Positions 8,776-48,724 of a DNA stretch of 64,000 bases are shown in pieces (the stretch's first letter is position 1; each line of letters begins with the position of its first letter). Below the pieces are notes generated by a model, which was not told the DNA's origin, searched no databases, and was given only the letters and a program-made list of their open reading frames with translations. Origin of the DNA: Flavobacteriales bacterium. Lineage in GTDB: Bacteria; Bacteroidota; Bacteroidia; Flavobacteriales_D; Sanyastnellaceae. Both the position numbers and the translations under genes were made by a program. Location of the stretch: assembly GCA_044371535.1 (NCBI GenBank), contig JBILTL010000001.1, forward strand, positions 9,668-73,667, read 5' to 3'.

Positions 8776-8893
8776 ATCCGGTGGATCAATTGCTACGCAA
8801 TCAATCAACTTCGTTGATCAATACTACGTATCAATCACCTACGGTGATCAATTCTACGAATCAATCGCTGCGCGATCAATCAACTTCGTTGAT
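8776..8893. repeat. GATCAAT-word mini-hairpin array, one arm only (8 units, all TNC-type loops on + strand)
   Basis: atcc-ggt-ggat, attgc-tac-gcaat, atcaac-ttc-gttgat, atac-tac-gtat, atcacc-tac-ggtgat, attc-tac-gaat, atcgc-tgc-gcgat and atcaac-ttc-gttgat, joined by CA linkers. Confidence 0.9.
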
Positions 8894-9352: not shown

Positions 9353-9494
9353 TTATCAATCCTTCGGATCAATCTGACTGCGTCAGATCAATACTCCGTA
9401 TCAATCACTTCGTGATAAACTGCATCCGCAGGATTGATTGCAACGCAATTGATCGCATAGCGATTGATCCGAAGGATTGATCACCGTAGGTGAT
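9353..9494. repeat. GATCAAT-word mini-hairpin array, two inverted arms (9 units)
   Basis: Left arm: atcc-ttc-ggat, atctgac-tgc-gtcagat, atac-tcc-gtat, atcac-ttc-gtgat (CA linkers). Centre: aaactgc. Right arm: atcc-gca-ggat, attgc-aac-gcaat, atcgc-ata-gcgat, atcc-gaa-ggat, atcacc-gta-ggtgat (TG linkers). Confidence 0.9.
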
Positions 9495-9500
9495 GGATTG

Positions 9501-10346
9501 TTATTTCAATTTTCTTACCAACGCCTGAAAATACTCCTTCGACCAAATGTCTAATTCCGATTGATCTGGAATAAAACGAATGACATCGTCTTTGACTTTG
9601 TTTATATCGACTGAATTGATTTTGTTATCTAACAAGAAAATTAATTGTGCTCTGCTAATGGTTGAATCTTGCCAATCGCCGCTTTCGATTGCGCGGTTAC
9701 AAAAGTGTTCTAAGTTTAGTTGCACTCCATTCTTAATATACCACGCTAAGTCATACCAGTCGCGGCCTTTGACTCTATCCTTCCATTTTCGAAAAAGCAA
9801 AGCATGCATTTTTCCAGCGAACAGATTGGGCAAAGTAAAGCAATTGACGTAAAAAGAATATGGCCTAGTTAAGAGGAGATTTTCAGTTTCAAAATGAAGG
9901 GGAGGATTCGTATCGACTTCAATTTTTATTTTTATCATCGGCTTCGTTGTTAAACGAATCTGAGGAATAGAACTTTCAAAAATTAATTCGCTCCACAGTG
10001 TGTCTGATTTTAGAAAAGCAGAATCTATTGACGAGCTTTTTGATTTTGTTTTGTGCTGAAGATTTACCTTTAGACCAAGAGCTTCAAACTCTTCAATGAC
10101 CGAATTGAAGTATGGCTCCAGATTGAATTCAAGGTTCTTCTCCAACAGAGAAAAATCAAGATCTTCCGAAAACCTTTCAAGATCATGAAATATGCGAAGC
10201 GCAGTGCCACCATAAAATGCAGCATGCTTAAAGAAATTAGCTCTGTATAATCCAGCAAGTGTTATCTCTTGCATAATCTCTCTAAGCGCCTGTTCGGTTT
10301 CTTGAACATTCTTTGGCTCGTAAGACTCAATCCATTGCTTTATCAT
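9501..10346 (-). CDS. abiEii: AbiEii/AbiGii-family nucleotidyltransferase toxin (type IV TA / abortive infection)
   Basis: 281 aa with a DUF1814-type NTase core (FYGGTALRIFHDLERFSEDLDF). ATGA overlap with the upstream AbiEi-like gene. Confidence 0.85.
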   Translation of the reverse strand: MIKQWIESYEPKNVQETEQALREIMQEITLAGLYRANFFKHAAFYGGTALRIFHDLERFSEDLDFSLLEKNLEFNLEPYFNSVIEEFEALGLKVNLQHKTKSKSSSIDSAFLKSDTLWSELIFESSIPQIRLTTKPMIKIKIEVDTNPPLHFETENLLLTRPYSFYVNCFTLPNLFAGKMHALLFRKWKDRVKGRDWYDLAWYIKNGVQLNLEHFCNRAIESGDWQDSTISRAQLIFLLDNKINSVDINKVKDDVIRFIPDQSELDIWSKEYFQALVRKLK

Positions 10347-11043: not shown

Positions 11044-11133
11044 CTGCGGATGACACCGAAGGTGATGACCAGCGAAGCTGGATGACAATCTGCGATTGAT
11101 GACGATTTACAATCGATGACGAACAAGTTCGAT
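11044..11133. repeat. GATGAC-word mini-hairpin array (5 units)
   Basis: GATGAC at 11049, 11064, 11081, 11098 and 11115, each followed by a 4-bp stem and triloop: acc-gaa-ggt, cagc-gaa-gctg, aatc-tgc-gatt, gatt-tac-aatc, gaac-aag-ttc. Confidence 0.85.
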
Positions 11134-11197: not shown

Positions 11198-11380
11198 ATC
11201 GCTGAACGATCAATCTGACTTCGTCAGATCAATTCTACGAATCAATCGCTACGCGATCAATCACTTCGTGATAAACTGCATCCGCAGGATTGATTGCAAC
11301 ACAATTAATCGCGTAGCGATTGATCAACAAAGTTGATTGATCACGCAGTGATTGATCCGTAGGATTGATCGCTAAGCGAT
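11198..11380. repeat. GATCAAT-word mini-hairpin array, two inverted arms (about 12 units); homologous to 9353-9494
   Basis: Left arm: atctgac-ttc-gtcagat, attc-tac-gaat, atcgc-tac-gcgat, atcac-ttc-gtgat. Centre: aaactgc. Right arm: atcc-gca-ggat, atcgc-gta-gcgat, atcaac-aaa-gttgat, atcac-gca-gtgat, atcc-gta-ggat, atcgc-taa-gcgat. Confidence 0.9.
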
Positions 11381-16262: not shown

Positions 16263-16313
16263 AGGTGCTTTGAAAGTTAAGAGAAGGGAAGAAAAGTTAA
16301 GAAAGGGGAACAA

Positions 16314-16448
16314 ATCACTTCGTGATCAATTCTTCGAATCAATCGCGTTGCGATCAATCGTTCCGATAAATCCGTAGGATTGATCACCGTAGGTGATTGA
16401 TTGCACAGCAATTGATCTGACAACGTCAGATTGATCACCGCAGGTGAT
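16314..16448. repeat. GATCAAT-word mini-hairpin array, two inverted arms (9 units), in a divergent promoter region
   Basis: Left arm: atcac-ttc-gtgat, attc-ttc-gaat, atcgc-gtt-gcgat, atcg-ttc-cgat. Right arm: atcc-gta-ggat, atcacc-gta-ggtgat, attgc-aca-gcaat, atctgac-aac-gtcagat, atcacc-gca-ggtgat. Confidence 0.9.
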
Positions 16449-16456
16449 TATATTTG
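16449..16456 (+). promoter_or_regulatory. Candidate -7 box (TATATTTG) for pgm
   Basis: The TAnnTTTG match starts 1 nt after the last hairpin of the 16314-16448 array and ends 16 nt before the pgm ATG. Confidence 0.35.
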
Positions 16457-16472: not shown

Positions 16473-18293
16473 ATGACCCCCTTAGAATCCGCAAAAGAAA
16501 AAGCTGCACTTTGGAAAACATACGACCTAGACGCAGAGACACGTGTAGAGATTGAACGCATGGAGCGTGAAGACGAGAAGTTGTTTATTGATTCGTTTTA
16601 TTCCGATTTGGAATTTGGGACAGGAGGATTGCGCGGCGTCATGGGTGTGGGAAGCATGCGCATGAACAAGTATACCGTGGGTATGGCTACGCAGGGATTG
16701 GCGAATTATATTTTGAAACACCATGCGCAAGTGGGTGGAGAGGGTTCGGTGGCGATCGCGTATGATTCGAGAAATAACTCGAGTTACTTCGCGCAAATTG
16801 CTGCAGATATTTTAGCTGAAAACGGCATACGCGTTTATCTCTTTTCTGAATTGCGTCCGACTCCGTTGTTGTCGTTTACCGTTCGTGAATTGAAATGCAC
16901 TGCGGGTATTGTTATAACCGCTTCACACAATCCGAAAGAGTACAACGGGTATAAGGTTTATTGGAGCGATGGTGGGCAGATATTGCCGCCGAATGACAAA
17001 GGGATAATCACCGAGGTTAAGATTGCCATGACTGGCAAAGATTCTTCGAAAGATGCAAATGCTTTGCAAGATGTTGCACAAGATGCACCTTCGGTGCAAG
17101 ATGCTACGCAAGATGCGATGCAAGATTCCTTCGGAAAGAGGGGAATGATAAACGAAGTGCCTCAGGCTGTTGAGGAAAAATATTTGGAATTGGTGCGCGG
17201 TCTTACCTTATCTGAAGAGGCAGTGAAGCAAGAGAAAGATATTTCCATTGTGTATACCTCTATACATGGTTCGGGGATAACGTTGGTGCCGAAGACGTTG
17301 TCTGCGTTGGGATTTTCGAATGTGAGTGTGGTGGAAGAGCAGGCGGTGCCCGATGGAAATTTCCCGACAGTGGAGTCTCCAAATCCGGAAGAGAAGTCAG
17401 CTATGAAAATGGCGTTGGAGTTGGGAGAGAAGGTGAATGCTGAATTGGTTTTGGGAACAGATCCAGATACCGATCGCGTGGGATTGGCGGTGAGAAATGA
17501 TCAGAATGAATTGGTATTGATCAATGGTAATCAAGCGGGAAGCTTGTTGGTGTATTATCGTTTGTTGGTCGGAAAGGAAAAAGGAAAATTACCTGAACAT
17601 CCGTTTATTGGAAAGACCATTGTTACCACTGAATTGATTGCGCGCATTGCGGAATCGTTCGGGGTGCCGTGTTACGACACGTTAACGGGATTCAAGTTTA
17701 TAGCGGGACTCATTAAAGAAAAAGAAGGGAAGGAAAATTTCGTAGCGGGAGGAGAAGAAAGCTACGGCTATTTAGTAAGTGATTTCGTTCGCGACAAGGA
17801 TGCGGCTTTGTCGGCGGTTCAGTTTGCAGAGATCGCAGCTTACGCGAAGAGCAAAGGAACATCGATATGGGGAATGTTGAAAGACCTTTACCTGCAACAC
17901 GGCGTGTTTCAGGAAGAGTTGGTAAGCATTACATTGAAGGGAATCGACGGTGTTGCGCAGATTCAAAGCATGATGTCGCGTCTTCGCACCACCCCTCCCA
18001 AAACCCTTGGCGGAGTAGCCCTTGCAGAATTGCACGATGTGAAAGCAGGCACCTGCAAAAACATGACTACCGGAGAAACTACGACACTCCCCTATCCAAG
18101 TTCAGACGTCTTGCAATTCATCTTAACCGACGGCAGCAAGATTAGCGCTCGCCCGAGTGGAACGGAACCGAAGATTAAGTTTTACTTTTCGCTTCGCAAG
18201 GAAGTATCTTCTGCTTCTGAGATTTCTGAAGCGCAATTTGAGCTTATGCAGAGAATTGAGCTAATTAAAAACGAAATGCTAAATGCGGGGTAA
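16473..18293 (+). CDS. pgm: Phosphoglucomutase/phosphomannomutase (alpha-D-phosphohexomutase) carrying an in-frame repeat insertion
   Basis: Active-site block GIVITASHNPKEYNGYKVYW, metal loop GTDPDTDR and sugar loop GGEESYG. Start at ATG 16473. Codons at 17037-17141 (KDSSKDANALQDVAQDAPSVQDATQDAMQDSFGKR) are encoded by a CAAGAT-type repeat array. Confidence 0.9.
   Translation: MTPLESAKEKAALWKTYDLDAETRVEIERMEREDEKLFIDSFYSDLEFGTGGLRGVMGVGSMRMNKYTVGMATQGLANYILKHHAQVGGEGSVAIAYDSRNNSSYFAQIAADILAENGIRVYLFSELRPTPLLSFTVRELKCTAGIVITASHNPKEYNGYKVYWSDGGQILPPNDKGIITEVKIAMTGKDSSKDANALQDVAQDAPSVQDATQDAMQDSFGKRGMINEVPQAVEEKYLELVRGLTLSEEAVKQEKDISIVYTSIHGSGITLVPKTLSALGFSNVSVVEEQAVPDGNFPTVESPNPEEKSAMKMALELGEKVNAELVLGTDPDTDRVGLAVRNDQNELVLINGNQAGSLLVYYRLLVGKEKGKLPEHPFIGKTIVTTELIARIAESFGVPCYDTLTGFKFIAGLIKEKEGKENFVAGGEESYGYLVSDFVRDKDAALSAVQFAEIAAYAKSKGTSIWGMLKDLYLQHGVFQEELVSITLKGIDGVAQIQSMMSRLRTTPPKTLGGVALAELHDVKAGTCKNMTTGETTTLPYPSSDVLQFILTDGSKISARPSGTEPKIKFYFSLRKEVSSASEISEAQFELMQRIELIKNEMLNAG
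17038..17138 (+). repeat. CAAGAT-word mini-hairpin array inserted in-frame inside pgm
   Basis: AAGAT recurs 7 times at spacings of 12, 18, 12, 18, 12 and 12 nt. Between them lie palindromes ttc-ttc-gaa, gcaaa-tgc-tttgc, gcacc-ttc-ggtgc, tgc-tac-gca and ttcc-ttc-ggaa. The word and grammar match the intergenic arrays at 28-49 kb. Confidence 0.85.
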
Positions 18294-18295
18294 TT

Positions 18296-18501
18296 CCACT
18301 ACGTGGGTAAATTAAAGTAAATAGCCTGCGGCTGTAATAAAGAGCAGTCGAGCTTACGACGCAGCGACTTAATTCAATTTACTGCGAAGCAATTTATCCT
18401 CCTTCAAATAAGTCCACTTGCGTGGGTAAATTGAAGTAAATAGCCTACGGCTGTAATTAAGTACAATCCAACTTACGGCGCAGCCACTTACTTTAACTTA
18501 C
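18296..18501. repeat. Two ~88-nt direct copies, start-to-start period 118 bp, built from short hairpins and TAA-rich words
   Basis: Copy 1 starts at 18296: ccactacgtgggtaaattaaagtaaatagcctgcggctgtaataaag... Copy 2 starts at 18414: ccacttgcgtgggtaaattgaagtaaatagcctacggctgtaattaag... Embedded hairpins are ccac-tac-gtgg and agcc-tgc-ggct. Lies between convergent pgm and rfbA. Confidence 0.85.
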
Positions 18502-18512
18502 ACCGAAGGTAT

Positions 18513-19373
18513 TTATTTCAATAGCCCCAAAAGATAGCCGCCGTACCCACTCTTCACCAACGGTTCCGCCAGTGCAATCAATTCCTCTTGATTGATATAC
18601 CCCATCCGATAAGCAATCTCTTCAATACACGAAATCTTTTGGCCTTGTCTTTGCTCCATAACCTGAACAAACTGTCCCGCCTGCATCAATGATGCAAATG
18701 TTCCAGTATCCAGCCAAGCAGTGCCGCGATTAAAGACAGTTACCGTGAGTTGTCCGCGTTTCAAGTATTCTTGATTCACATCGGTAATCTCGTATTCTCC
18801 GCGTGCAGAAGGTTTTAGATTTTTAGCAATTTCCACTACTGAATTGTCATAGAAATACAATCCAGGAACGGCATAATTGCTTTTCGGTTGTGAGGGTTTT
18901 TCTTCAATGGAAATGACTTTCCCTTCCGAATCGAATTCCACCACACCGTAGCGTTCTGGATCGTTCACGTGATAGGCAAATACTTTTCCGCCAACTACTT
19001 CGGTGCTTGCTTGTAATAATTTGCTGAGCCCACTCGCGTAAAAAATATTGTCCCCTAATATTAAAGCGACTTTTTCTTTTCCAATGAATTCTTCTCCAAT
19101 CACAAAAGCTTGCGCAAGTCCATTGGGTTCGGTTTGTTCAGCGTATTCGAAGGTGCAACCCAATTGAGATCCGTCTCCTAATAATTTTTGAAATCCGGGT
19201 AAATCGTGCGGCGTAGAAATAATCAAGATCTCACGAATACCCGCCAACATCAATACCGAAAGCGGATAGTAAATCATGGGCTTGTCGTACACCGGCATGA
19301 GCTGCTTGCTTACGGCCAAGGTTAACGGATGCAAGCGCGTTCCTGAACCACCCGCGAGAATTATTCCTTTCAT
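18513..19373 (-). CDS. rfbA: Glucose-1-phosphate thymidylyltransferase
   Basis: [18 protein letters not shown]...[17 protein letters not shown], the canonical RmlA sequence. 286 aa. Confidence 0.95.
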
Positions 19374-19376
19374 GGC

Positions 19377-20435
19377 TTAACGATTAACGTATTGATTGTT
19401 GTAATAAGTCTGGTACGCACCTGAAGTGACGTTGTTTAACCACTCGGTATTGTTCAAATACCAATCGACTGTTTTTTCAATGCCTTCTTCAAACTGTAAA
19501 GAAGGTTTCCATCCCAATTCATTCATGATTTTGGTTGAATCTATGGCGTAACGCAAATCGTGTCCCGCGCGGTCGGTGACGAATTGAATCAGCTTTTCCG
19601 ACTCGCCTTCCGTTCGATTTAATTTACCGTCTAAAATCTTACACAGCAATTTCACCACATCTATGTTCTTCCATTCATTGAATCCGCCTATGTTGTAGGT
19701 CTCTCCTATTTTCCCTTCGTGAAAAACTTTGTCAATGGCTTTTGCATGATCTTCCACGAACAACCAATCGCGCACATTCTCTCCTTTTCCGTAGACAGGA
19801 AGGGGTTTTTGGTGAATGATGTTGTGAATGATGAGTGGAATTAGTTTTTCTGGAAAGTGATTCGGACCGTAGTTGTTCGAGCAATTGCTTATGACAATTG
19901 GAAGTCCGTACGTGTTTCCGTAAGCACGAACAAAATGGTCGGAAGCCGCTTTGGAAGCGGAATACGGGGAACGCGGATCGTAAGAAGTTTCTTCGGTGAA
20001 GAAGTCTTCCGCGTTATGCAGTTCTCCGTACACTTCATCGGTAGAAACATGGTAAAAGCGTTTGCCTTCGAAGTTGTTTTTCCAATGTGCAACGGCTGCA
20101 TTTAACAACGTAACCGTTCCAACCACATTCGTTTGCACAAACTCCATGGGATTCGTAATGCTTCGGTCTACGTGCGACTCTGCGGCCAAATGAATGACAC
20201 CATCGAAGTTGTATTTGTCGAATAACGACTGTACAAAAGCGGCATCTGCTACATCTCCTTTCTCAAACGCGTAATTCGCAAGATGGTCCACATCTTTGAG
20301 ATTCTCTAGGTTACCTGCGTAAGTAAGCTTATCAAGATTTACAACTTTGACATCGGCATGCGTCAACAAAAAATGACGAACCACATGCGAACCAATGAAT
20401 CCGGCTCCGCCTGTGATAAGAATTGTTTTATACAT
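19377..20435 (-). CDS. rfbB: dTDP-glucose 4,6-dehydratase
   Basis: ILITGGAGFIGSH Rossmann motif, the YSASKAASD catalytic motif and RmlB-type length of 352 aa. Confidence 0.95.
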   Translation of the reverse strand: MYKTILITGGAGFIGSHVVRHFLLTHADVKVVNLDKLTYAGNLENLKDVDHLANYAFEKGDVADAAFVQSLFDKYNFDGVIHLAAESHVDRSITNPMEFVQTNVVGTVTLLNAAVAHWKNNFEGKRFYHVSTDEVYGELHNAEDFFTEETSYDPRSPYSASKAASDHFVRAYGNTYGLPIVISNCSNNYGPNHFPEKLIPLIIHNIIHQKPLPVYGKGENVRDWLFVEDHAKAIDKVFHEGKIGETYNIGGFNEWKNIDVVKLLCKILDGKLNRTEGESEKLIQFVTDRAGHDLRYAIDSTKIMNELGWKPSLQFEEGIEKTVDWYLNNTEWLNNVTSGAYQTYYNNQYVNR

Positions 20436-20454
20436 TATAAAGAATTAATAAAAC

Positions 20455-21510
20455 TCAAGCCAATGACTTTAAATCACTCTCAACCATAATTCGAATTAGC
20501 TCCTCTATTGACGTCTGTTTTGGGTTCCAACCTAAATCTTGCATTGCGCTTTTTGGATCTCCAACCAACTCTTCTACTTCACTCGGTCTATACTGTGTCG
20601 GGTCAACTTCAACTAAAATTTTTCCAGTTTCTAAATCAACACCTTTTTCATCTATTCCTACTCCCTGCCATTCAATTTTAATGCCTATGAGATTAAATGC
20701 CATTGCACAAAAATAACGGACAGAATAAGATATGCCAGTAGCAATTACATAATCCTTTGGAGTGCTATTCTGCAACATTAACCACATGCATTTAACATAG
20801 TCTTTAGCATATCCCCAATCTCTTTTCGCATCTAAATTTCCCAAATACAACTTATCTTGAAGCCCCAATTTGATTCTTGCTACAGACATTGTTATTTTTC
20901 TCGTAACAAAGGTTTCTCCTCGCCTTTCACTTTCATGATTAAACATAATTCCGTTAACCGCGAAAAAACCGTATGCCTCCCTATAATTTTTCGTTATCCA
21001 AAATGCATATAACTTCGCAACTCCATAGGGAGAACGAGGATAAAAAGGAGTTTTTTCATTTTGAGGAACCTCCGTTACCTTTCCATACAATTCACTCGTT
21101 GAGGCTTGATATATTCTACACGTTTTCTCGAGATTTGTTAAACGAACAGCCTCCAACACTCGCAAGGCTCCAAGAGCATCAACCTCGGAAGTATACTCAG
21201 GAACTTCAAAAGAAACTTTAACATGACTTTGAGCCCCTAGATTGTAAATTTCATCTGGTTGTATTTTTCCGATTATAGATATTAATGATGATAAATCCGT
21301 TAAATCGCCATAGTGCAATTCCAACCTTCTTTCTTTACTGGTATCAATAATCCAATTATTAAAATATAAGTGCTCTATTCTTTTAGTATTAAAGCTTGAC
21401 GATCTTCTAATTAGACCATGCACCTCATAATTCATTTCTAACAAGAATTCAGCTAAATAAGATCCGTCTTGTCCGGTTATTCCTGTAATAAATGCAACTT
21501 TTTTTTTCAT
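20455..21510 (-). CDS. gmd: GDP-mannose 4,6-dehydratase
   Basis: [21 protein letters not shown]...[19 protein letters not shown]...[20 protein letters not shown], the canonical Gmd sequence. Markedly AT-rich gene. Confidence 0.95.
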
Positions 21511-21524
21511 TCTTTAAATAAAGT

Positions 21525-22835
21525 CTATAATCGACAATCCGAAATTCGTCGAGGTAAAATTCCTTTCAAATCAAAAATTACTTTATCATCGCTGTTAATA
21601 AAATTATATTCAATAAATTCAGAATGTGCAACTCCAATTATTACACCTTGATACTCAGAAATCATCTGATTACTAACGTTTTTAATAAGATCTATTCCAA
21701 ACTCTTGCTTTACCTCATCTACATTGGCCCATGGGTCATAAATATCAACAATACATCCAAATTGAATTAATTCAGAATGTATGTCTATAATCTTTGTATT
21801 CCTAACATCAGGACAATTTTCTTTGAATGTAATTCCTAAAATTAATATTCTTGCATTTTTTATTAGAATTCCTTTAGCTATAAGTTTCTTTATCATCTTA
21901 TTTGCCACGAATTCCCCCATTCGGTCATTAACTCTTCTACCCGATAAGATTACAGCCGGATGATAACCCGCTTGCTCTGATCTAAAAGCGAGATAATAAG
22001 GATCAACTCCGATGCAATGCCCTCCAACCAGACCAGGTTTGTATTTCAGAAAATTCCATTTAGTACTTGCCGCATCCAATACTTCATGAGTATCTATTCC
22101 TAATTTGTCAAAAATAAGTGCTAACTCATTAACAAAAGAAATGTTTACATCTCTTTGAGCATTTTCGACTGCCTTGGAAGCTTCTGCAACTTTTATTGAA
22201 GTCGCTCTATATGTTCCTGCTGTGATAATGCTTTGGTACAATTTGTCAACCAAATCCGCAATCTCTAATGTACTTCCACTCGTAACTTTCTTGATACTTG
22301 TTAGAGTATTTACTTTATCACCCGGGTTAATTCTTTCAGGTGAGTATCCACAAAAAAAATCTATATTAAATTTCAATCCAGATTCCTGTTCTAAAACAGG
22401 AACACATTCCTCCTCAGTACACCCAGGATATGTTGTGCTTTCATAAATTACTATGTCCCCTTTTTTAAGTATTGATCCTATTGATTTCGAAGCAAGAATT
22501 AATGGACTTAAATTCGGTCTTTTACTTTCATCAACAGGTGTAGGAACGGTTACAATGTAAATGTTAGCAGACCCTAAATCATAGATTGCATTCGAAAGAT
22601 ACAATCCATTATTCTTCCATTTTTTTTCTTTTTTAAGAACTTCTAATAGTTCTGTACTATCAGTTTCCCTGGTAATATCAAACCCCGAATTCAGCTCATC
22701 GATTCTTTTTTTATTAATATCAAATCCTATTACGCTATATTTTTTACTAAATTCTACCGCAAGTGGCAATCCAACATAACCTAATCCTATTACTGCAATT
22801 CGTTTATTAGCTAACATACCCAGAATTTTCAACAA
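21525..22835 (-). CDS. Nucleotide-sugar (UDP-N-acetyl-hexosamine) 6-dehydrogenase, TviB/WbpO-like
   Basis: KRIAVIGLGYVGLPLAVEF Rossmann motif and catalytic GGHCIGVDP. An alternative start at 22817 is possible. Very AT-rich. Confidence 0.85.
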   Translation of the reverse strand: MLKILGMLANKRIAVIGLGYVGLPLAVEFSKKYSVIGFDINKKRIDELNSGFDITRETDSTELLEVLKKEKKWKNNGLYLSNAIYDLGSANIYIVTVPTPVDESKRPNLSPLILASKSIGSILKKGDIVIYESTTYPGCTEEECVPVLEQESGLKFNIDFFCGYSPERINPGDKVNTLTSIKKVTSGSTLEIADLVDKLYQSIITAGTYRATSIKVAEASKAVENAQRDVNISFVNELALIFDKLGIDTHEVLDAASTKWNFLKYKPGLVGGHCIGVDPYYLAFRSEQAGYHPAVILSGRRVNDRMGEFVANKMIKKLIAKGILIKNARILILGITFKENCPDVRNTKIIDIHSELIQFGCIVDIYDPWANVDEVKQEFGIDLIKNVSNQMISEYQGVIIGVAHSEFIEYNFINSDDKVIFDLKGILPRRISDCRL

Positions 22836-22913
22836 AGATAGAGTATGTTAACTTATAGAAAACTAAATTAGTTTGAAACAAAAATCTGCAAGAATTCAAA
22901 AATTGCCAACTCG

Positions 22914-24401
22914 CTAGTTTTCTAACAATGCAATTCTAATCACAGAACCCTCCGCAGGCGAACTCGAAAGCACATAGATCGCGCCTTTATGATAATTCTT
23001 CACAATGCGCTTTGCAAGAGAAAGTCCAAGACCCCAACCGCGGAGCTTCGTGGTGAAGCCAGGTTCGAAGATGGTTTTCCATTTGCGTTTCGGGATACCC
23101 TTGCCGCTGTCTTTGACGTCAATGTATACCTTGCCGTTGGCTTCGTGAATGGATACAGTTAGCTGTCCTTTCGCATCCATGGCGTCTACGCTGTTCTTCA
23201 CAAGGTTTTCAATGACCCAACTGAACAAGGCGACGTTCACATTCACATTCGGATTGCCTTCCGATTCAACGAGAATAACGACTTCAGAGGATATACGGAC
23301 GCGCAAGTAATCTAAGATTTCTTCCACCAAGTCTTTTGCGCCGACTGGCGTGAGCGCTGCTTCTGAGCCGATTTTAGAGAAGCGTTCTGTTATGGTTGAA
23401 AGGCGCTCGATGTCTTTGTTAAACTCATCGATGAGCGCCTTCGAAACGCCTTGCTGCTCGAACAAATCGCGCCAAGCCATAAGCGCAGAAAGCGGAGTGC
23501 CCAACTGATGCGCCGTCTCCTTCGCCATACCCACCCATACCAAATTCTGCTCGGATCTTCTAAACGTAGAGAACAACACATACGCCACAACTAAGAATAC
23601 GCCTATGAGCGACAACTGTAAATACGGAAACAACTTCAACTGCTGAATGGTAGCAGAGTCGTCGTAGAAAATATACTGCGTTGGCCTTCCTGGAATTTTA
23701 ATTTCAATGGGCTCATACCCTTCCTTCATTTCAGCCAAGACCTCATTCACATTGCATTTCAGCGTGTCTATCTTTCCAACCTGAACAACATTCATCTTCG
23801 TGCTGTCGGTAACAATTACAGGCACAGAAGCGGTGTTAATTACCGTTTCATTGAAGAACGAAGAAACCAAATCGTCGATGGTTTGCTTCAATTCTTTGTA
23901 CATGTAACTGTTGCTGTAGTAAACCACAATGTTGACGTCTGGAAAAGCAATGGGTTTGTACTCTTGCTCGTACTGAAGACGCAATTCTTCTATGCGAACG
24001 GGATCTTTGATGTACACCGAATCGATGTTGCGCGAAAGCTGAAATTTATTTTTGTTATTGCAAACCAACAAAGGAATGCTGTTGTTTAGCGAAAGAACAT
24101 CTACCGGAAATGTAAGATCTCCCCGCGCATCCGCAATTGCCTTCACTGCACGTCCCAAAACTTCCGCTTTGCTCGTTTCCTCGGAACGCAAGCTGTCGAA
24201 CAAGACCTGCGTAAGCTTCACCAATTCTTCCTTCTTGCGAATGGCGCTGTGCCACAATTCGACCTTCGCTTTTTCTTCATCGCGAATGCGACGCGCAATG
24301 CTGTTGGTGTACCACAACGTAACGCCCGCAATGGTCGCTGCTAAAAGCAACAAGACCACTTTCCAACGTTGTTTATTCTGCAATACAGCCATGTTCTTCA
24401 A
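22914..24401 (-). CDS. Membrane sensor histidine kinase (no cognate response regulator in window)
   Basis: Two TM segments flanking an extracytoplasmic domain, H-box ETAHQLGTPLSAL, and HATPase_c N/G boxes (VIENLVKNSVDA, DSGKGI, GWGLGLS). Confidence 0.85.
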   Translation of the reverse strand: MKNMAVLQNKQRWKVVLLLLAATIAGVTLWYTNSIARRIRDEEKAKVELWHSAIRKKEELVKLTQVLFDSLRSEETSKAEVLGRAVKAIADARGDLTFPVDVLSLNNSIPLLVCNNKNKFQLSRNIDSVYIKDPVRIEELRLQYEQEYKPIAFPDVNIVVYYSNSYMYKELKQTIDDLVSSFFNETVINTASVPVIVTDSTKMNVVQVGKIDTLKCNVNEVLAEMKEGYEPIEIKIPGRPTQYIFYDDSATIQQLKLFPYLQLSLIGVFLVVAYVLFSTFRRSEQNLVWVGMAKETAHQLGTPLSALMAWRDLFEQQGVSKALIDEFNKDIERLSTITERFSKIGSEAALTPVGAKDLVEEILDYLRVRISSEVVILVESEGNPNVNVNVALFSWVIENLVKNSVDAMDAKGQLTVSIHEANGKVYIDVKDSGKGIPKRKWKTIFEPGFTTKLRGWGLGLSLAKRIVKNYHKGAIYVLSSSPAEGSVIRIALLEN

Positions 24402-26477
24402 TTATGATTTGTGTGCAAGGTCTAACAAAAACGCATATTCTAAGGCTACTTCCTTCAGGGCTTCAAATCTTCCAGACTTGCCGCCGTGTCCGGCTTCCAT
24501 GGTGCATTTGAAAAACAATTTATTCGAATCGGTCTTCATCTCACGCAACTTCGCCACGTACTTCGCAGGCTCCCAATATTGCACTTGGCTGTCCCAATAC
24601 CCTGTGGTTACAAGGGTATGCGGATAGTCCTTCGCCTCAATATTATCGATAGGAGAATAACTTAACATGTAGTCGTAATATTGCTTGTCTTTCGGATTTC
24701 CCCACTCGTCGAATTCGAACGTAGTAAGTGGAATGCTCTCGTCTAACATCGTCGTCACCACGTCTACAAATGGCACTGCGCTTATGATTCCGTTGAATAG
24801 CGAAGGCGCCATGTTGGCCACCGCACCCATTAACAAACCGCCTGCACTTCCGCCCATAGCGAACAAGTGCTTGCTCGCGGTGTAGTTTTCTTTCACCAAA
24901 AATTCTCCGCAAGCAATGAAGTCGGTGAAGGTGTTTCGCTTCTTCAATAATTTTCCGTCTTCGTACCAGTTGCGTCCCATGTCGCTTCCTCCGCGAATGT
25001 GCGCAATGGCAAAAACAAATCCTCTGTTTAACATGGAAAGTCTTGCACTGCTGAATCCAGCGTCCATGCTGTGTCCGTAGCTTCCGTATGCGTAAAGCAG
25101 ACACGGCGCACTTCCGTTGCGTTCGAAGCCTTTTTTGTATACCAAAGAAATAGGAACCTTCACGCCATCTGATGCCATTGCAAAAATGCGTTCACTGGTA
25201 TAATCACTCGCATTGAATTCACCCAACACCGGTTGTTGTTTTTTCAATTCACGCTCGCGTGTTTTCATGTTGTAATCGAACACGCTTCCCGGGGTGGTCA
25301 TGGATGAATATCCGAAACGAAGCGTCTCGGTATCGAATTCCGGATTTGCTCCAACTCCCGCGCTGTATGTAGGGTCTGGGAATTCGAGGTAGTGCTCTTC
25401 AGACTTGTCCCAACGTGTTACGCGAATGTGCGCCAACCCTTCGGTGCGTTCTTCCAACACCAAATATTCTTTGAACATCTCAACCGATTCCAACAACGTA
25501 TTCTCGCGATGCGGAATCACTTCTTCCCAACTTTCTTTTTCGGTGGAATGAATGGGACATGACATCAATCTGAAGTTCTTCGCTTCCAAATTCGTGAGGA
25601 CGTAGAACTTGTCTTCGTATTGCGTGATGCTGTATTCCAAGTCGCGTTTTCGCTTTTGAAACAAGCGAAACTCTCCTTTCGGGTTATTCGATTCTAACAC
25701 ACGATATTCATCTGAAACCGTTTGAGAACTGCCAATCATTAAGAATTTCTTCGTTTTCGTCTTGAAAACAAAACACGAAAATTCTTCGTCTTTTTCATCG
25801 TAAACCAAAACATCGGAAGCCGTATCTGTTCCCAATTCGTGACGCCAAATCTGACTGTCACGCAGGGTTTGCGCATCTTTCTTCGTGTAGAAAAAATGAA
25901 GGTTGTCTGAAGCCCACGTTGCAGAACCTGAAGTTCCTTCAATGACTTCGTTGAACATTTCTCCCGTTTGAAGATCGCGGACATGCAACGTATAGACTCT
26001 TCGACTTACTTCATCTATTCCGTAAACCATGAAGCGGTTGTTCTCTGAAATGCTCAATCCGCCTAGCGCCCAGTAATCTTTTCCTTTTCCCATTTCTGGA
26101 CCGTTGATGAGAATTTCTTCTTCCCCGGTTTCCATGCTGTCTTTCTTTCTGCAGTTGAAGGCGTAGTCTTGTCCAACTTCAAAACGTGTATAATACCAAT
26201 ATCCGTTTTGCTTTACAGGAACAGAAGAATCGTCTTCTTTGATGCGGCCTTTCATCTCTTCGAACAACTGCTTCTGCAATTCTTCGGTGTGCTTCATTCC
26301 CGCGTCTACGTAGTCGTTCTCTTCCTTCAGATAAGCTAAGACATCGGCAGTTTGCTCGTCTGGAGTAGCAGCGTTTTTCTGTTCGTCTGAAAGGCGCATC
26401 CAGTAGTAGTTGTCGACACGGGTATGTCCGTGTTCCACCAATTCTTTCGCTATTTTCTTTGCACTCGGTGTCTTCAT
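24402..26477 (-). CDS. ptrB: Oligopeptidase B / prolyl oligopeptidase family S9A serine protease
   Basis: 691 aa with a beta-propeller N-domain and a catalytic domain with GGSAGGLLMG nucleophile elbow and C-terminal EAGHGG. Confidence 0.9.
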   Translation of the reverse strand: MKTPSAKKIAKELVEHGHTRVDNYYWMRLSDEQKNAATPDEQTADVLAYLKEENDYVDAGMKHTEELQKQLFEEMKGRIKEDDSSVPVKQNGYWYYTRFEVGQDYAFNCRKKDSMETGEEEILINGPEMGKGKDYWALGGLSISENNRFMVYGIDEVSRRVYTLHVRDLQTGEMFNEVIEGTSGSATWASDNLHFFYTKKDAQTLRDSQIWRHELGTDTASDVLVYDEKDEEFSCFVFKTKTKKFLMIGSSQTVSDEYRVLESNNPKGEFRLFQKRKRDLEYSITQYEDKFYVLTNLEAKNFRLMSCPIHSTEKESWEEVIPHRENTLLESVEMFKEYLVLEERTEGLAHIRVTRWDKSEEHYLEFPDPTYSAGVGANPEFDTETLRFGYSSMTTPGSVFDYNMKTRERELKKQQPVLGEFNASDYTSERIFAMASDGVKVPISLVYKKGFERNGSAPCLLYAYGSYGHSMDAGFSSARLSMLNRGFVFAIAHIRGGSDMGRNWYEDGKLLKKRNTFTDFIACGEFLVKENYTASKHLFAMGGSAGGLLMGAVANMAPSLFNGIISAVPFVDVVTTMLDESIPLTTFEFDEWGNPKDKQYYDYMLSYSPIDNIEAKDYPHTLVTTGYWDSQVQYWEPAKYVAKLREMKTDSNKLFFKCTMEAGHGGKSGRFEALKEVALEYAFLLDLAHKS

Positions 26478-26483
26478 GATAAT

Positions 26484-27161
26484 CTATTTTGAAGTTAGTG
26501 ATTCGCCCACGATGAGGTCAATGGGCGATGTTATTTTAATGTTTTCCAAATTTCCTTCCACCAAAAAAACCGAATGACCGTTCGCTTCCACTACGGAAGC
26601 ATCGTCGGTGAACAACGGGCTGAAAGGCTTGCTATACGCCTCTTTCAACACAGTAGATTCAAAACATTGGGGAGTTTGAATGCGTTTGTACATCGAACGA
26701 TCGACACTCTTGTTGAAAATACCATGCACTTCACGAATGGAATCGTTGATCGGAATAGCGGGTACGACAGCGTTATGTTCATTCAAAGTATTGAAGCAAC
26801 GCGTGAGTGTTTCGTGCGAAACAAGCGGACGCACTGCGTCGTGAATAGCAATATGTTCTACGTCGGAAGAGACGGCTTCAATGCCGTTTCTCACGCTGTG
26901 AAAACGTTCTTCTCCGCCAGCAACGACGGTGTGTTCAGGAACATCTTCAAACTGAAGACACAGGTCTTTCCAGAATGAAATGTAGTCGTGGTGCATGACT
27001 ACAATCATTTCGAAATTCCGATTGAACGAAAAGAAATTTCGAAGCGTATGAATGAGAATGGGCGTGTTGTTGAGTGTTAGGAATTGCTTCGGAAGGGGGC
27101 TTCCCATGCGGGTTCCGGTGCCTCCTGCGACAAAAATGACTGCTTGTTTCACTGTGTTCAT
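26484..27161 (-). CDS. ispD: 2-C-methyl-D-erythritol 4-phosphate cytidylyltransferase
   Basis: VAGGTGTRMGSPLPKQF, HDAVRP, QTPQCF, TDDASV and NIKITSPIDL motifs. Confidence 0.9.
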   Translation of the reverse strand: MNTVKQAVIFVAGGTGTRMGSPLPKQFLTLNNTPILIHTLRNFFSFNRNFEMIVVMHHDYISFWKDLCLQFEDVPEHTVVAGGEERFHSVRNGIEAVSSDVEHIAIHDAVRPLVSHETLTRCFNTLNEHNAVVPAIPINDSIREVHGIFNKSVDRSMYKRIQTPQCFESTVLKEAYSKPFSPLFTDDASVVEANGHSVFLVEGNLENIKITSPIDLIVGESLTSK

Positions 27162-27171
27162 GTCGCAGAAA

Positions 27172-28209
27172 TTAATCTTCTAAATGCGTTGGATATATCA
27201 CCTCATTGGCTGGAACGGTAGCATTCACGCGCTTTCCAACCACTAAATTTCGTTGTGCCCATTTGAATCCATCGCCAGGAGAAAGCATGCACAAATCGGA
27301 TTCTTCAATCACACTTCCCGCAGGAATATCTTTCACCGCGGCAATGCTGCGCTCTAACTTCAATCGAGCAGAAGCCACTGAATCTTCGATCTTCATTTCC
27401 ACTTCACCCATAGACAATTCGAGTTCTCGAATGTCGCGCACCATGCGACGAATACCGTCGGGACCCAACGAACCTTTTTGGTCGGTGCCTTTCAAGTTGC
27501 GGTCGGTGGTGATGTGTTTTTCAATGATGGTTGCACCCATGGCAACTGCTGCCACCGGCGTAAAGATGCCGAGGGTATGGTCGCTGAAACCAATGTTGTA
27601 CTTGGGGTAATTCGCTTGTAAAAAACGAAGGGTATTGAGGTTCACGTTCTTCGGCTGCGTCGGGTATTCACTCGTGCAGTGAAGAATGCTGATGTTCGAA
27701 TGATAATGCGAAATGGTGTCTAACGCGTGATCGAGCTCTTCTTTCCCGGCCATTCCAGTTGAAAGAATAATTGGAATTTTGGTTTCCGCAAGGGCCTCAA
27801 GCAAAGGCAAATTGGTTAAGTCGCGACTGGCTACTTTCAGATAATCGGGCGTGAATCGTTTCAACAAAGAGAGACATCCGCGTGCGCAAAGTGTTTCCAC
27901 AAAATCGAGTCCCTTTGCTTTGGCGCAGTGAAACAACTCTTCGTGTTGTTCGTCGTTGAACTCAAGAAAGGCGCGGTGTTCGCCATAGGTGGCACCGAAG
28001 GAATGTGGACTGTTGTAGGGGGCATTCATTTGCGACTGACTGAGTTCTTCGTTCAGGTCGCGCTTGGTGAACTTCACGGCGTTCATGGGTTTCAGAGAAA
28101 GCTGAAAATAATCTTCAACGACGGGTTGCGCCGCAAGATCCATGATCTCCTTCGCCAGTTCCACGGAACCGTTGTGGTTTTGTCCTATTTCTCCGATTAT
28201 GTAGGTCAC
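27172..28209 (-). CDS. N-acetylneuraminate synthase family protein (NeuB/PseI/SpsE-like) with C-terminal SAF domain
   Basis: IIGEIGQNHNGS start motif, TIM-barrel aldolase core (KFTKRD, ILHCTSEYPT, GFSDHT) and a SAF-like C-terminus. 345 aa. Confidence 0.85.
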   Translation of the reverse strand: MTYIIGEIGQNHNGSVELAKEIMDLAAQPVVEDYFQLSLKPMNAVKFTKRDLNEELSQSQMNAPYNSPHSFGATYGEHRAFLEFNDEQHEELFHCAKAKGLDFVETLCARGCLSLLKRFTPDYLKVASRDLTNLPLLEALAETKIPIILSTGMAGKEELDHALDTISHYHSNISILHCTSEYPTQPKNVNLNTLRFLQANYPKYNIGFSDHTLGIFTPVAAVAMGATIIEKHITTDRNLKGTDQKGSLGPDGIRRMVRDIRELELSMGEVEMKIEDSVASARLKLERSIAAVKDIPAGSVIEESDLCMLSPGDGFKWAQRNLVVGKRVNATVPANEVIYPTHLED

Positions 28210-28250
28210 CTTACAAAGATAGTATTATTCACGGGGTGAAAGTTGCTAAA

Positions 28251-28352
28251 GCAAGGTTCTGCGAAAGGTGTGTTACAAGATTCTATCGAAAGATGTTTCA
28301 CAAGGTGCGGAGCAAGATTCTGCGAAAGATGTTTCACAAGGTGCTTCGCAAG
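28251..28352. repeat. CAAGAT/CAAGGT-word mini-hairpin array (one arm)
   Basis: gcaaggttctgcgaaaggtgtgttacaagattctatcgaaagatgtttcacaaggtgcggagcaagattctgcgaaagatgtttcacaaggtgcttcgcaagg. Lies between the neuB-like start and the DUF2480 stop. Confidence 0.85.
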
Positions 28353-28883: not shown

Positions 28884-29046
28884 GAAAGATTTTTCAAAAG
28901 ATGCTGAAGGCAAGATTCTGCGAAAGGTGTGTTTCAAGATGCCGGAGGCAAGATTCTGCGAAAGATGACAAGCAAGAAGCCTGCGGCTAGAAGCATACAC
29001 TTACGACGTATCTTTCAAGGAATCTTGTGAAACATCTTGCAAAGCT
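28884..29046. repeat. CAAGAT-word mini-hairpin array, two inverted arms
   Basis: The left arm uses AAGAT words (gatgccggaggcaagattctgcgaaagat). The centre is aagcc-tgc-ggct. The right arm uses ATCTT words (tatctttcaaggaatcttgtgaaacatcttgcaaag). Confidence 0.85.
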
Positions 29047-29089
29047 TGGGAGGAAGAATTGAGATTGTCTTTCCAAAGAGAAAGAAATC

Positions 29090-29764
29090 TTAATTCGCGT
29101 AACGCTCACTCACAAAATTCCAATTCACAACTGTGAAAATAGCCGTTAAATAATCTGCTCGTTTGTTCTGATATTTCAAGTAATAGGCGTGCTCCCAAAC
29201 GTCGATGCCAAGGATTGGAGTGCCTGGCTTGTCAACGACCTTCGACATAAGCGGATTGTCTTGATTGGCAGTTGACGTAACGAACAGTCCGCCTTTAGCG
29301 TCTTTGCATAACCACACCCATCCACTGCCGAAACGTGACTTCCCTTCATCGGTCATAACCTTTTTTAGGTTGTCAATACTTCCGAAGTCGCGCTGAATTG
29401 CGGCGGCTAATTCCTTACTTGGCTCTCCTGCTGTGCTTGGAGCAGACAAACAATTCCAGAAAAAAGTGTGATTGAAATGCCCGCCGCCGTTGTTGCGAAT
29501 AGCCATGTCTTTCGCATCTACTGCCGCGCACAATTGCTCAATTGTAAGTTTCGCGTACTTCTGATTTGCCTCGACCTTCATGGCAGTATTCAAATTTGTG
29601 ACGTAAGCCAAGTGATGCTTATCGTGGTGAATATGCATGGTCTCTGCGTCAATTGCAGGTTCCAAGGCCTCATAGGCATAGGGCAATTCTGGGACAATCC
29701 AATCCTGAGCGAAGCTCATTGTTCCACAAAAAAGAAAACCTACAGCAAGCAACAAATTTTTCAT
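29090..29764 (-). CDS. Fe/Mn superoxide dismutase, secreted (signal peptide)
   Basis: LPYAYEALEPAIDAETMHIHHDKHH and DVWEHAYYLKYQNKRADY are canonical SOD motifs. N-terminal signal sequence. Confidence 0.95.
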   Translation of the reverse strand: MKNLLLAVGFLFCGTMSFAQDWIVPELPYAYEALEPAIDAETMHIHHDKHHLAYVTNLNTAMKVEANQKYAKLTIEQLCAAVDAKDMAIRNNGGGHFNHTFFWNCLSAPSTAGEPSKELAAAIQRDFGSIDNLKKVMTDEGKSRFGSGWVWLCKDAKGGLFVTSTANQDNPLMSKVVDKPGTPILGIDVWEHAYYLKYQNKRADYLTAIFTVVNWNFVSERYAN

Positions 29765-40640: not shown

Positions 40641-40772
40641 CAAGATTCTTACGAAAGATGTTGCACAAGATGCTGAAGCAAGATTCTTACGAAAGATGTT
40701 GCACAAGATGCTGAAGCAAGATTCTTACGAAAGATGTTGCACAAGATGCTGAAGCAAGATTCTAGAGAAAGA
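40641..40772. repeat. CAAGAT-word array: three perfect 38-bp tandem copies plus a partial fourth
   Basis: caagattcttacgaaagatgttgcacaagatgctgaag starts at 40641, 40679 and 40717, with a partial copy from 40755. Each copy is three word-plus-hairpin units (ttc-ttac-gaa, tgt-tgc-aca, tgc-tgaa-gca). Confidence 0.95.
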
Positions 40773-40850
40773 TAATTCATCAGAACCTCTCTGTTAAAAA
40801 ACAATTATACCCAAGGAAATAAGAATGAAGAAAACTTGTTGATTTGTAAA

Positions 40851-41708: not shown

Positions 41709-41713
41709 TTCCT

Positions 41714-41934
41714 AGATGCCGGAGGCAAGATTCTGACGAAAGATGTTTCACAAGATGCCGGAGGCAAGATTCTGACGAAAGATGTTTCACAAGATGCCGG
41801 AGGCAAGATACTTCGTAAGATTCTGACGAAAGATGCTACGCAAGCAGAGCGGCCTGGCCGTAGGCTTCTTTTGCAAAATCTTGTGAAACATCTTACAAAG
41901 TATCTTGCGATAAAATCTTGCAAAATCATTTGCA
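41714..41934. repeat. CAAGAT-word mini-hairpin array, two inverted arms (39-bp period in the left arm)
   Basis: agatgccggaggcaagattctgacgaaagatgtttcaca starts at 41714 and 41753, with a third copy from 41792 that diverges after agatgccggaggcaagat. The centre is ggcc-gta-ggcttctt. The right arm uses ATCTT words (aaatcttgtgaaacatcttacaaagtatcttgcgataaaatcttgcaaaatcatttgca). Confidence 0.9.
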
Positions 41935-41976
41935 TCAAATCCCTTAAATGTGGTATTTTTGCAGCCCAAACGACTT

Positions 41977-48561: not shown

Positions 48562-48712
48562 GAAAGATACTTTGTAAGATGCTTCGCAAGATTCTGATGA
48601 AAGATACTCTGTAAGATGCTTCGCAAGATTCTATCGAAAGAAACTTCGTTAGTGTATCCACTAGCCGAAGGCTTCTTGTAAAACATCTTGTGAAACATCT
48701 TGCGAAGCATCT
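48562..48712. repeat. CAAGAT-word mini-hairpin array, two inverted arms (37-bp period in the left arm)
   Basis: aagatac(t/c)ttgtaagatgcttcgcaagattct repeats at 48564 and 48601. The centre is agcc-gaa-ggcttctt. The right arm is gtaaaacatcttgtgaaacatcttgcgaagcatctt. Confidence 0.9.
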
Positions 48713-48724
48713 TACCTTAGCCTT

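Follow-up and report, generated by a model that had tools for sequence, protein, structure and literature searches.

How does a repeat of intergenic gaps come to be translated inside a housekeeping gene, and on what terms does it stay there? The gene in question is pgm, which encodes a phospho-sugar mutase/phosphoglucomutase (PGM) and lies within a 64,000-nt stretch of a Flavobacteriales bacterium (assembly GCA_044371535.1, contig JBILTL010000001.1), referred to in its entirety as the window. An initial annotation, made from the letters alone, had proposed that this gene reads straight through an array of CAAGAT words built with the hairpin grammar of the intergenic arrays. We find that sequence comparison supports the segment as a member of that intergenic repeat family, that the array varies in length even between otherwise identical PGMs, and that it is probably a passenger tolerated in a permissive loop of the protein rather than an adaptation of the enzyme.

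The pgm array and its intergenic relatives

The open reading frame (ORF) of pgm extends from an ATG at 16473 to 18293 on the forward strand and gives a product of 606 aa, as first called; its identity rests on the ORF list, Pfam, alignments and an AlphaFold2 (AF2) model. Within it a word scan, Tandem Repeats Finder (TRF) and the AF2 model delimit an array at 17037..17126 (K189-D218) made of 12- or 18-nt units, in which seven AAGAT words, five of them CAAGAT and two AAAGAT, start at 17038, 17050, 17068, 17080, 17098, 17110 and 17122, all on the forward strand. The word-to-word distances are 12, 18, 12, 18, 12 and 12 nt, as claimed, TRF reports periods of 30 and 12, and every word is read xAA-GAT to give K/Q-D within the peptide KDSSKDANALQDVAQDAPSVQDATQDAMQDSFGKR, the same as that originally noted. 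The proposed hairpin grammar is also present, with all seven spacers being XY...Y'X' palindromes from the intergenic unit set. Two of these are 13-nt forward-strand hairpins with 5-bp stems, namely GCAAATGCTTTGC at 17055..17067 (GCAAA-TGC-TTTGC, with a TGC loop; sequence, DNA fold and spacer pool) and GCACCTTCGGTGC at 17085..17097 (GCACC-TTC-GGTGC, with a TTC loop; sequence, RNA and DNA folds and spacer pool), and both appear in the RNA and DNA minimum-free-energy folds, each with one extra base pair. On the same strand, sequence and alignments define a tail at 17127..17141, consisting of TCCTTCGGA, a spacer with a 3-bp stem, followed by the degenerate word AAGAG and encoding SFGKR; because its F aligns with a conserved F/W of outgroup proteins, this tail probably either was there natively or served as the array's seed. 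Taken as a whole, the 109-nt stretch has ordinary stability as RNA (z = -0.6) and is moderately stable as DNA (z = -2.3; 4 of 200 shuffles were equally good). Hence, for this one-armed copy, the term hairpin array is right for the modules and not for the entire segment.

Clusters of at least three words occur at 9 places in the window, whereas mononucleotide shuffles average 0.17 and never exceed 2, and CAAGAT itself is found 71 times, where shuffles give 48 ± 7. The pgm copy is the sole in-gene cluster in the window, the other eight being distributed over five intergenic loci (28277, 28886/29010, 40642, 41727/41878 and 48564/48685). When 598 spacers from the window and related loci were pooled, both outer pairs were Watson-Crick in 434 of the 457 7-nt spacers and in 48 of the 63 distinct 7-nt types, where chance would give 1 in 16. 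Seven stems are used in these 7-nt spacers (GT/AC, TC/GA, GC/GC, AC/GT, TT/AA, CC/GG and AT/AT), and spacers of 6, 8, 9 and 13 nt are built alike, differing in the size of stem or loop. The basic module is a 3-nt linker (AGA) plus the hairpin T-XY-NNN-Y'X'-A, 12 nt in all, or 18 nt if the stem gains 3 bp. In intergenic gaps the family takes the form of one arm, or of two inverted arms about a GC hairpin; the intergenic arrays of the window use 8- and 9-nt spacers (TCTTACGA, GCCGGAGGC) and the pgm copy the 7- and 13-nt versions. No Rfam family was matched in a scan of the whole window, the viral contigs searched held no array and gave one trivial three-word match, and no earlier description of such arrays in Flavobacteriales or Bacteroidota turned up in the literature library searched.

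The kinship of the pgm copy with these arrays extends to exact strings. It shares 19 nt with the array at 40654, where shuffled queries reached at most 15 nt, and 35 nt with the non-coding array directly upstream of pgm in a related metagenome-assembled genome (MAG; L001). Its units TCTTCGA, GTTGCAC, GCTACGC and GCAAATGCTTTGC rank among the commonest units of non-coding arrays, the last being present in relatives both upstream of pgm (L001) and in the ispG-purK gap (L088). In the pgm gene of one relative (L082) both arms lie within the gene, with ten AAGAT words, a centre CAAGACCTTTCGGAGAATCTT and then ATCTT words read as N-L, and this two-armed mRNA segment folds at -66 kcal/mol (z = -3.6); in another (L081) the variant words AAGGT/ACCTT are read as Q-G and D/N/H-L. 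Because identical 13-nt units occur at unrelated loci, we infer that gene conversion or transposition has at some point carried sequence from one locus to another.

The intergenic copies vary in their architecture. At 28277..28330 (forward strand; word scan, TRF and strain comparison) AAGAT and AAGGT words are mixed in one array. We considered whether AAGGT/ACCTT words form genome-level dialects in which pgm and intergenic copies co-vary, and rejected this idea because both words are mixed within single arrays in the window (~28240-28340) and in L132. The element at 28886..29038, between sodA and a DUF2480 gene, has an AAGAT arm (28886-28966), a GC hairpin centre (AGCCTGCGGCT) and an ATCTT arm (29010-29038). 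The array at 40642..40773 (forward strand) is one-armed, with 11 words between divergent genes; its spacings of 13/12/13 nt agree with the 12-14 nt given originally for intergenic arrays, and the 3.2 perfect repeats of its 38-nt unit (100 % identity) imply a very recent expansion. This 38-nt repeat (40641-40763) lies in a divergent promoter gap, and the orthologous site in L132 carries a different, two-armed array, chiefly of AAGGT/ACCTT words. The two-armed element at 41727..41919 consists of an AAGAT arm (41727-41834), a central hairpin and an ATCTT arm (41878-41919), and 41710-41945 folds into a long hairpin (z = -4.3). A further two-armed element, at 48564..48713, fills the gap between two co-directional genes.

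Site, length variation and reading frame

The protein that hosts the array has the four-domain architecture and the four catalytic loops of phosphohexomutases. Pfam recognises PGM_PMM_I (residues 47-183), II (237-339) and III (352-461) well above their cut-offs and PGM_PMM_IV slightly below (22.5 bits; cut-off 23.1). The catalytic motifs are all intact (TASHNP 149-154, DPDTDR 330-335, GGEES 426-430 and RPSGTEP 560-566), and the serine, metal, sugar and phosphate loops are invariant in close orthologues, most positions remaining so when outgroups are added. An AF2 run on close orthologues alone was unusable (predicted local distance difference test, pLDDT, of 45), and we took the model obtained with 95 diverse sequences in the alignment (pLDDT 83.9; predicted template modelling score, pTM, 0.85), which matches solved PGM/PMM structures with a probability of 1.00. 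Its sole long low-confidence stretch, residues 193-222, is the array; the helix that closes domain I (174-187) precedes it and the strand that opens domain II (226-228) follows. According to the prediction, the block forms a disordered loop where domains I and II meet and does not disturb the catalytic core, in keeping with the surface loop that had been expected. The position between conserved domain I blocks given in the initial annotation has to be revised, as the Pfam match to domain I stops at residue 183 and that to domain II begins at 237.

The segment is specific to the lineage. Outgroup Bacteroidota carry a conserved-length 7-aa 'xSIDEVK' at the array site and their phospho-sugar mutases are nearly all 574-578 aa long, which bears out the excess of ~30 aa noted for the window protein, and residues past the array (FGKRGMINEVPQAVEEKYL) align with native outgroup sequence. 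At the species level only a Lake Zurich Flavobacteriales MAG is close (89 % identity), the next relative being at 56 %. In 118 orthologous PGMs (85-94 % identity), we measured the block between GG(Q)ILPP and VEEKYL and found that it spans 33-87 aa, in 27 lengths and 95 distinct sequences, with the N-terminal flank constant at 170 aa and the C-terminal flank varying by two residues only. The block lengths are all odd, corresponding to a 6-nt step, as would be expected if the hairpin grows by base pairs of 2 nt each and the frame demands multiples of 3. Among PGMs that are 100 % identical over the other 535 residues, one pair differs by +14 aa (42 nt = 18+12+12) and another by -10 aa (30 nt). 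These whole-unit differences between identical flanks show that the array changes in length faster than any substitution accrues in the rest of PGM, and the prediction that unit number would vary between strains while preserving the frame holds.

A comparable picture emerges at three orthologous intergenic sites, which we compared with syntenic metagenome contigs at 82-88 % DNA identity. The flanks are conserved and the array is always present, and arm lengths, units and word variants differ between strains. As there was no presence/absence polymorphism in pgm, in the cyclase gene described below or at the three intergenic sites compared, the arrays act as resident, rapidly changing loci. In L166, the orthologue of the interval from the array to sodA (window 29040-29090) contains a strain-specific insertion of ~330 nt, absent from the window, that adjoins the two-armed array and seems to code for a small protein.

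We asked how far the multiple-of-3 spacing in pgm reflects selection for an open frame, as had been argued. The argument stands in part. Twelve nucleotides is also the modal spacing of non-coding arrays (265 of 350 spacings; 78 % are multiples of 3), and pure 12/18 non-coding arrays with pgm-type units exist in the convergent ispG-purK gap (L087, L088) and upstream of pgm (L001, L081, L085), so 12/18 is the default of the family. However, spacings that are not multiples of 3, chiefly of 11, 13 and 14 nt, make up 8 of 133 in coding arrays (6 %) and 78 of 350 in non-coding ones (22 %; Fisher p = 9e-6), and the few coding exceptions are compensated (14+16) or have a flanking pseudo-word. All three sense frames of a consensus array are free of stops, and the hydrophilic K/Q-D frame is used in 20 of 21 sense arrays, which points to protein-level selection on a tolerable frame. 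The choice between K and Q follows a rule: in PGM, K follows D-S-x in 44/44 cases and Q follows D-(A/V/G/D/E)-x in 92/93, and in the cyclase the corresponding counts are 66/67 and 110/110. This is because the first base of the spacer (T/G) pairs with the last (A/C), which also opens the AAA/CAA codon, and the rule is a clean case of protein sequence dictated by DNA base pairing.

Other ORFs do carry QD-type inserts, as a metagenome DNA scan with a family-specific, non-pgm pattern showed (78 loci, 588 kb, 93 arrays). Twenty-two of the 93 arrays are embedded in long open frames and flanked on either side by coding sequence, 21 of them in seven further host families, six of which have Pfam domains (Cyclase, GT2, Ppx-GppA, Peripla_BP_2, DUF4846 and PMT_2). 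The hosts are a cyclase/kynurenine-formamidase protein whose Pfam domain encloses the array, a GT2 glycosyltransferase in which the array splits the domain, a Ppx/GppA protein, a periplasmic-binding protein, a DUF4846 lipoprotein, a PMT-like membrane glycosyltransferase with two arrays, one per strand, the antisense one being read 'ASCETSFEES', and an acidic protein with no Pfam assignment. Orthologues of the cyclase are 256-312 aa long, mostly in 4-aa steps. The PMT_2-like protein recurs (L091 2915-4549; L094 10087-11010; L157) with one array in the K/Q-D frame and an opposite-strand array read ASCxTSFEES, and its first array in L094 comprises at least six 12-aa repeats. An open frame over the array in L132 was set aside as a spurious host gene without Pfam match.

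At the protein level, a 63-aa array peptide searched against 1.84 billion representative proteins gave two relevant matches, both spurious ORFs on a non-coding array, and one unrelated repeat protein. Gene callers read through the arrays in other cases too. Two PGM entries of 645 and 647 aa (P0082, P0095) are falsely extended at their N termini across upstream arrays; we rejected such arrays as coding extensions of PGM, since the pgm frame contains stops there and the longer database proteins are artefacts of gene calling. Two entries of 72-73 aa (P0242, P0243) are ORFs made wholly of the non-coding ispG-purK array. Annotation should be wary of such arrays, which yield spurious ORFs and false N-terminal extensions and inflate the diversity of metagenome protein clusters.

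Origin and persistence of the array

We think it quite probable that the pgm array is a resident, fast-slipping and near-neutral passenger, tolerated in a permissive loop and not an adaptation of the enzyme. The pgm segment would be an in-frame copy of lineage-wide arrays of words and mini-hairpins, seeded once in the ancestor of the clade when gene conversion or transposition copied another array into the site, and it would have evolved in place since then. Whole 12- or 18-nt modules have been gained and lost, most likely by replication slippage or unequal recombination, with in-frame, stop-free variants as the only survivors. Several points weigh against this reading. No empty site was found within the clade, even the shortest alleles keeping two words (KDSSKDSFGKK), so that the insertion into pgm proposed in the initial annotation is a putative event; growth in place from a native AAAGAT...TTCGGAAAG seed may be the alternative. 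The block has never been lost in the 118 orthologues, and such constant retention could mean that it is useful and not merely tolerated. The 35-nt match with the array upstream of pgm in L001 probably says less for a recent exchange than it appears to, since with about ten common units the sharing of two units between loci is to be expected fairly often. No Y1_Tnp domain or transposase was found in 10 small ORFs near arrays. Finally, that the block is translated and the enzyme active is itself predicted from the DNA.

One alternative is that the array is kept for a function, either at the nucleic-acid level, as binding sites for a host protein, a cause of transcription or translation pausing or a signal for recombination bordering the variable polysaccharide cluster, or as a length-tunable linker between domains I and II. 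The retention of the block without a single full deletion, the almost perfect keeping of the hairpin pairing rule within coding sequence, the strong folding of two-armed in-gene copies such as that of L082 (-66 kcal/mol, z = -3.6), the position of pgm beside a gene cluster of strain-variable content and the persistence of arrays at orthologous intergenic sites across strains would all fit a function. Nevertheless, we regard it as quite unlikely, given that length and sequence are almost unconstrained (33-87 aa; 95 sequences in 118 proteins), that at least seven unrelated proteins host the repeat, at positions that bear no relation to one another, and that the window copy has lost its second arm and is of ordinary RNA stability (z = -0.6); rapid unit turnover or template-switch repair of quasi-palindromes could keep the pairing without selection. 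A wider proposal, that in these arrays we see a functional or self-propagating nucleic-acid element of a class not yet described, with a pairing grammar that is actively maintained even in coding sequence, also seems unlikely to us. Were it true, a nucleic-acid code would be superimposed on at least eight proteins of this lineage, showing itself in the strict K/Q rule (K after D-S-x, Q after D-A/V-x), and a dedicated array-recognising protein would be expected, for example an HUH/Y1-type enzyme or an array-binding factor.

The array might also be the footprint of an active non-autonomous mobile element, either like a REPIN, a paired form of the repetitive extragenic palindrome (REP), with a Y1/HUH transposase, or a miniature inverted-repeat transposable element (MITE), that has transposed into pgm and other genes and is still moving. 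Two inverted arms about a central hairpin do resemble REPINs and MITEs, the word-plus-hairpin design recalls the tag-plus-hairpin REPs (PMC3733652), identical 13-nt units recur at unrelated loci, many host genes carry the repeat, and arrays of different genes share start units ...GATTCTTCGAAAGAT and end units GATGCTTCGCAAGG. Against this, pgm, the cyclase and the three compared intergenic sites are occupied in every strain, a target-site duplication could not be defined, there is no GTAG or CGTC tag, the 10 small ORFs near arrays include no Y1 transposase, and the variation that we observe is all unit gain and loss in place, which makes continuing transposition somewhat unlikely; the proposal concerns origin and is compatible with the array being a passenger today. 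Finally, the block could simply be a low-complexity linker native to the enzyme, lengthened by local slippage and similar to the intergenic repeats by chance or shared base composition. Coding tandem repeats are common in bacteria, native residues of the outgroups align with the SFGKR tail, and the shortest alleles exceed the outgroup sequence by only ~3 aa. This explanation is already contradicted by the evidence and extremely improbable, because of the shared unit vocabulary that includes 13-nt hairpin units identical to those of non-coding arrays, the 19-nt exact match with 40654 above all shuffled queries, the in-frame presence of both intergenic-type arms in the relatives L082 and L081, and the occurrence of the repeat in seven other protein families.

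Surroundings and comparison with known systems

The DNA around pgm holds repeats of other kinds. The divergent gap between an MBOAT gene and pgm is filled at 16313-16450 by a second mini-hairpin family with the word (T)TGAT(C), also found at 9433-9481, 8779-8889 and 11334-11370; the run of nine consecutive perfect hairpins (e.g. ATCAC-TTC-GTGAT and ATCTGAC-AAC-GTCAGAT), joined by 2-nt linkers, stops at a TAtaTTTG box that precedes the pgm ATG by ~30 nt. In L001, L081, L082 and L085 an ATCTT/ACCTT array takes the place of this (T)TGAT(C) array upstream of pgm. Other word arrays use GGATGAC(C) with a 13-nt period or GGATA with a 15-nt period (11048-11086; L085 1335-1446; L084 68-177), and the intergenic regions of the lineage appear to hold several word-array families. 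Between the convergent genes pgm and rfbA, at 18291-18516, a 119-nt unit is present in 1.9 copies at 81 % identity, with small GC hairpins such as AGCCTGCGGCT that are like the centres of two-armed arrays. As for genes, pgm stands at the edge of a polysaccharide-biosynthesis cluster (18300-27500; rfbA, rfbB, epimerases and glycosyltransferases), and those directly downstream of it vary by strain (NTP_transf_5, Epimerase_2, 23S_rRNA_IVP and dTDP_sugar_isom in L082-L086). The ORF at 9501-10346 on the reverse strand is syntenic with a gene in L083 (2839-3702) that has an AbiEii toxin domain, which suggests an abortive-infection or toxin-antitoxin pair beside the alginate-type O-acetylation genes (MBOAT, ALGX). 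At 1-3000 the window has a run of 74-141-aa ORFs with long gaps and a coding density that is unusually low compared with the rest, and none of the three ORFs tested there had a Pfam match.

The in-frame colonisation of housekeeping genes by palindromic repeats is best known from Rickettsia, and our data extend it to abundant free-living freshwater Bacteroidota, in the different form of modular arrays that resemble variable-number tandem repeats (VNTRs). The dozens of PGM length alleles in otherwise identical sequence amount to a natural experiment on insertion tolerance. The Rickettsia palindromic elements (RPEs) had been named as the only well-known precedent, which is too narrow a view, in that palindromic repeats within ORFs have been described not only for RPEs but also for GTAG/CGTC REPs in Opitutus, Thauera and others and for ERIC and BOX elements (PMC10969869, PMC3733652). 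RPEs are single units of ~100-150 bp that occur between genes and in frame in many housekeeping genes and are interpreted as selfish or neutral DNA (Ogata et al. 2000, 2002, as summarised in PMC10969869 and PMC3733652). The arrays described here resemble RPEs in being one palindromic family found both in intergenic DNA and in frame in unrelated functional genes, here pgm and seven further families, and in adding peptide where the fold tolerates it. The description of RPEs nonetheless sets them apart, because instead of a single unit we find tandem 12/18-nt modules whose copy number varies between near-identical strains, and because the hosts are free-living freshwater Flavobacteriales and not an obligate intracellular alphaproteobacterium.

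With REPs, their mosaic assemblies (bacterial interspersed mosaic elements, BIMEs) and REPINs, the arrays share short hairpins with a conserved flanking word, frequent inverted pairs that fold into larger structures and a location mostly downstream of genes, and clusters of REPs are also occasionally translated in ORFs, over 20-82 aa (PMC3733652, PMC3116915). Inverted pairs are seen at 28886-29038, 41727-41919 and 48564-48713, with a fold of z = -4.3 for 41710-41945. However, the word here is AAGAT, with the variant AAGGT, and not GTAG/CGTC; GTAG turns up in a minority of the units, where it reads as the reverse complement of a TAC loop, and now and then at the edges of arrays. The hairpins are also far smaller, with stems of 2-6 bp, and strictly head-to-tail with a 12-nt period, and we found no gene for a REP-associated tyrosine transposase (RAYT), for which Y1_Tnp was looked for in 10 small ORFs near arrays. 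In comparison with MITEs, the arms are inverted copies of each other; whole elements show no presence/absence polymorphism, pgm, the cyclase and the three intergenic sites being occupied in every strain compared, which leaves no empty site from which to define a target-site duplication.

Bacterial coding minisatellites or VNTRs, such as the intragenic loci used in multiple-locus VNTR analysis (MLVA) typing, are normally specific to one locus. The pgm array is like them in its head-to-tail units of a multiple of 3 nt and its slippage-type changes in copy number between close strains, with TRF periods of 12 and 30, 27 length alleles and whole-unit differences between identical flanks. It differs in that one family with one vocabulary spans many intergenic sites and at least eight genes, and in that its units follow a base-pairing rule. 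Nor does it behave as a phase-variable contingency locus, as all 118 of 118 alleles are in frame and units of 12 and 18 nt cannot shift the frame. The TAACTGA heptamer arrays of Beggiatoaceae, Cyanobacteria and some Bacteroidetes, whose function is unknown, are intergenic and occasionally lie in ORFs (PMC4679880); they are similar as short conserved-word arrays, but are contiguous and have neither hairpin spacers nor a two-armed architecture. Compared with these known systems, what differs is the modular 12/18-nt architecture, the AAGAT word, the VNTR-like variation and the phylum and lifestyle of the host, within a general phenomenon that is already established.

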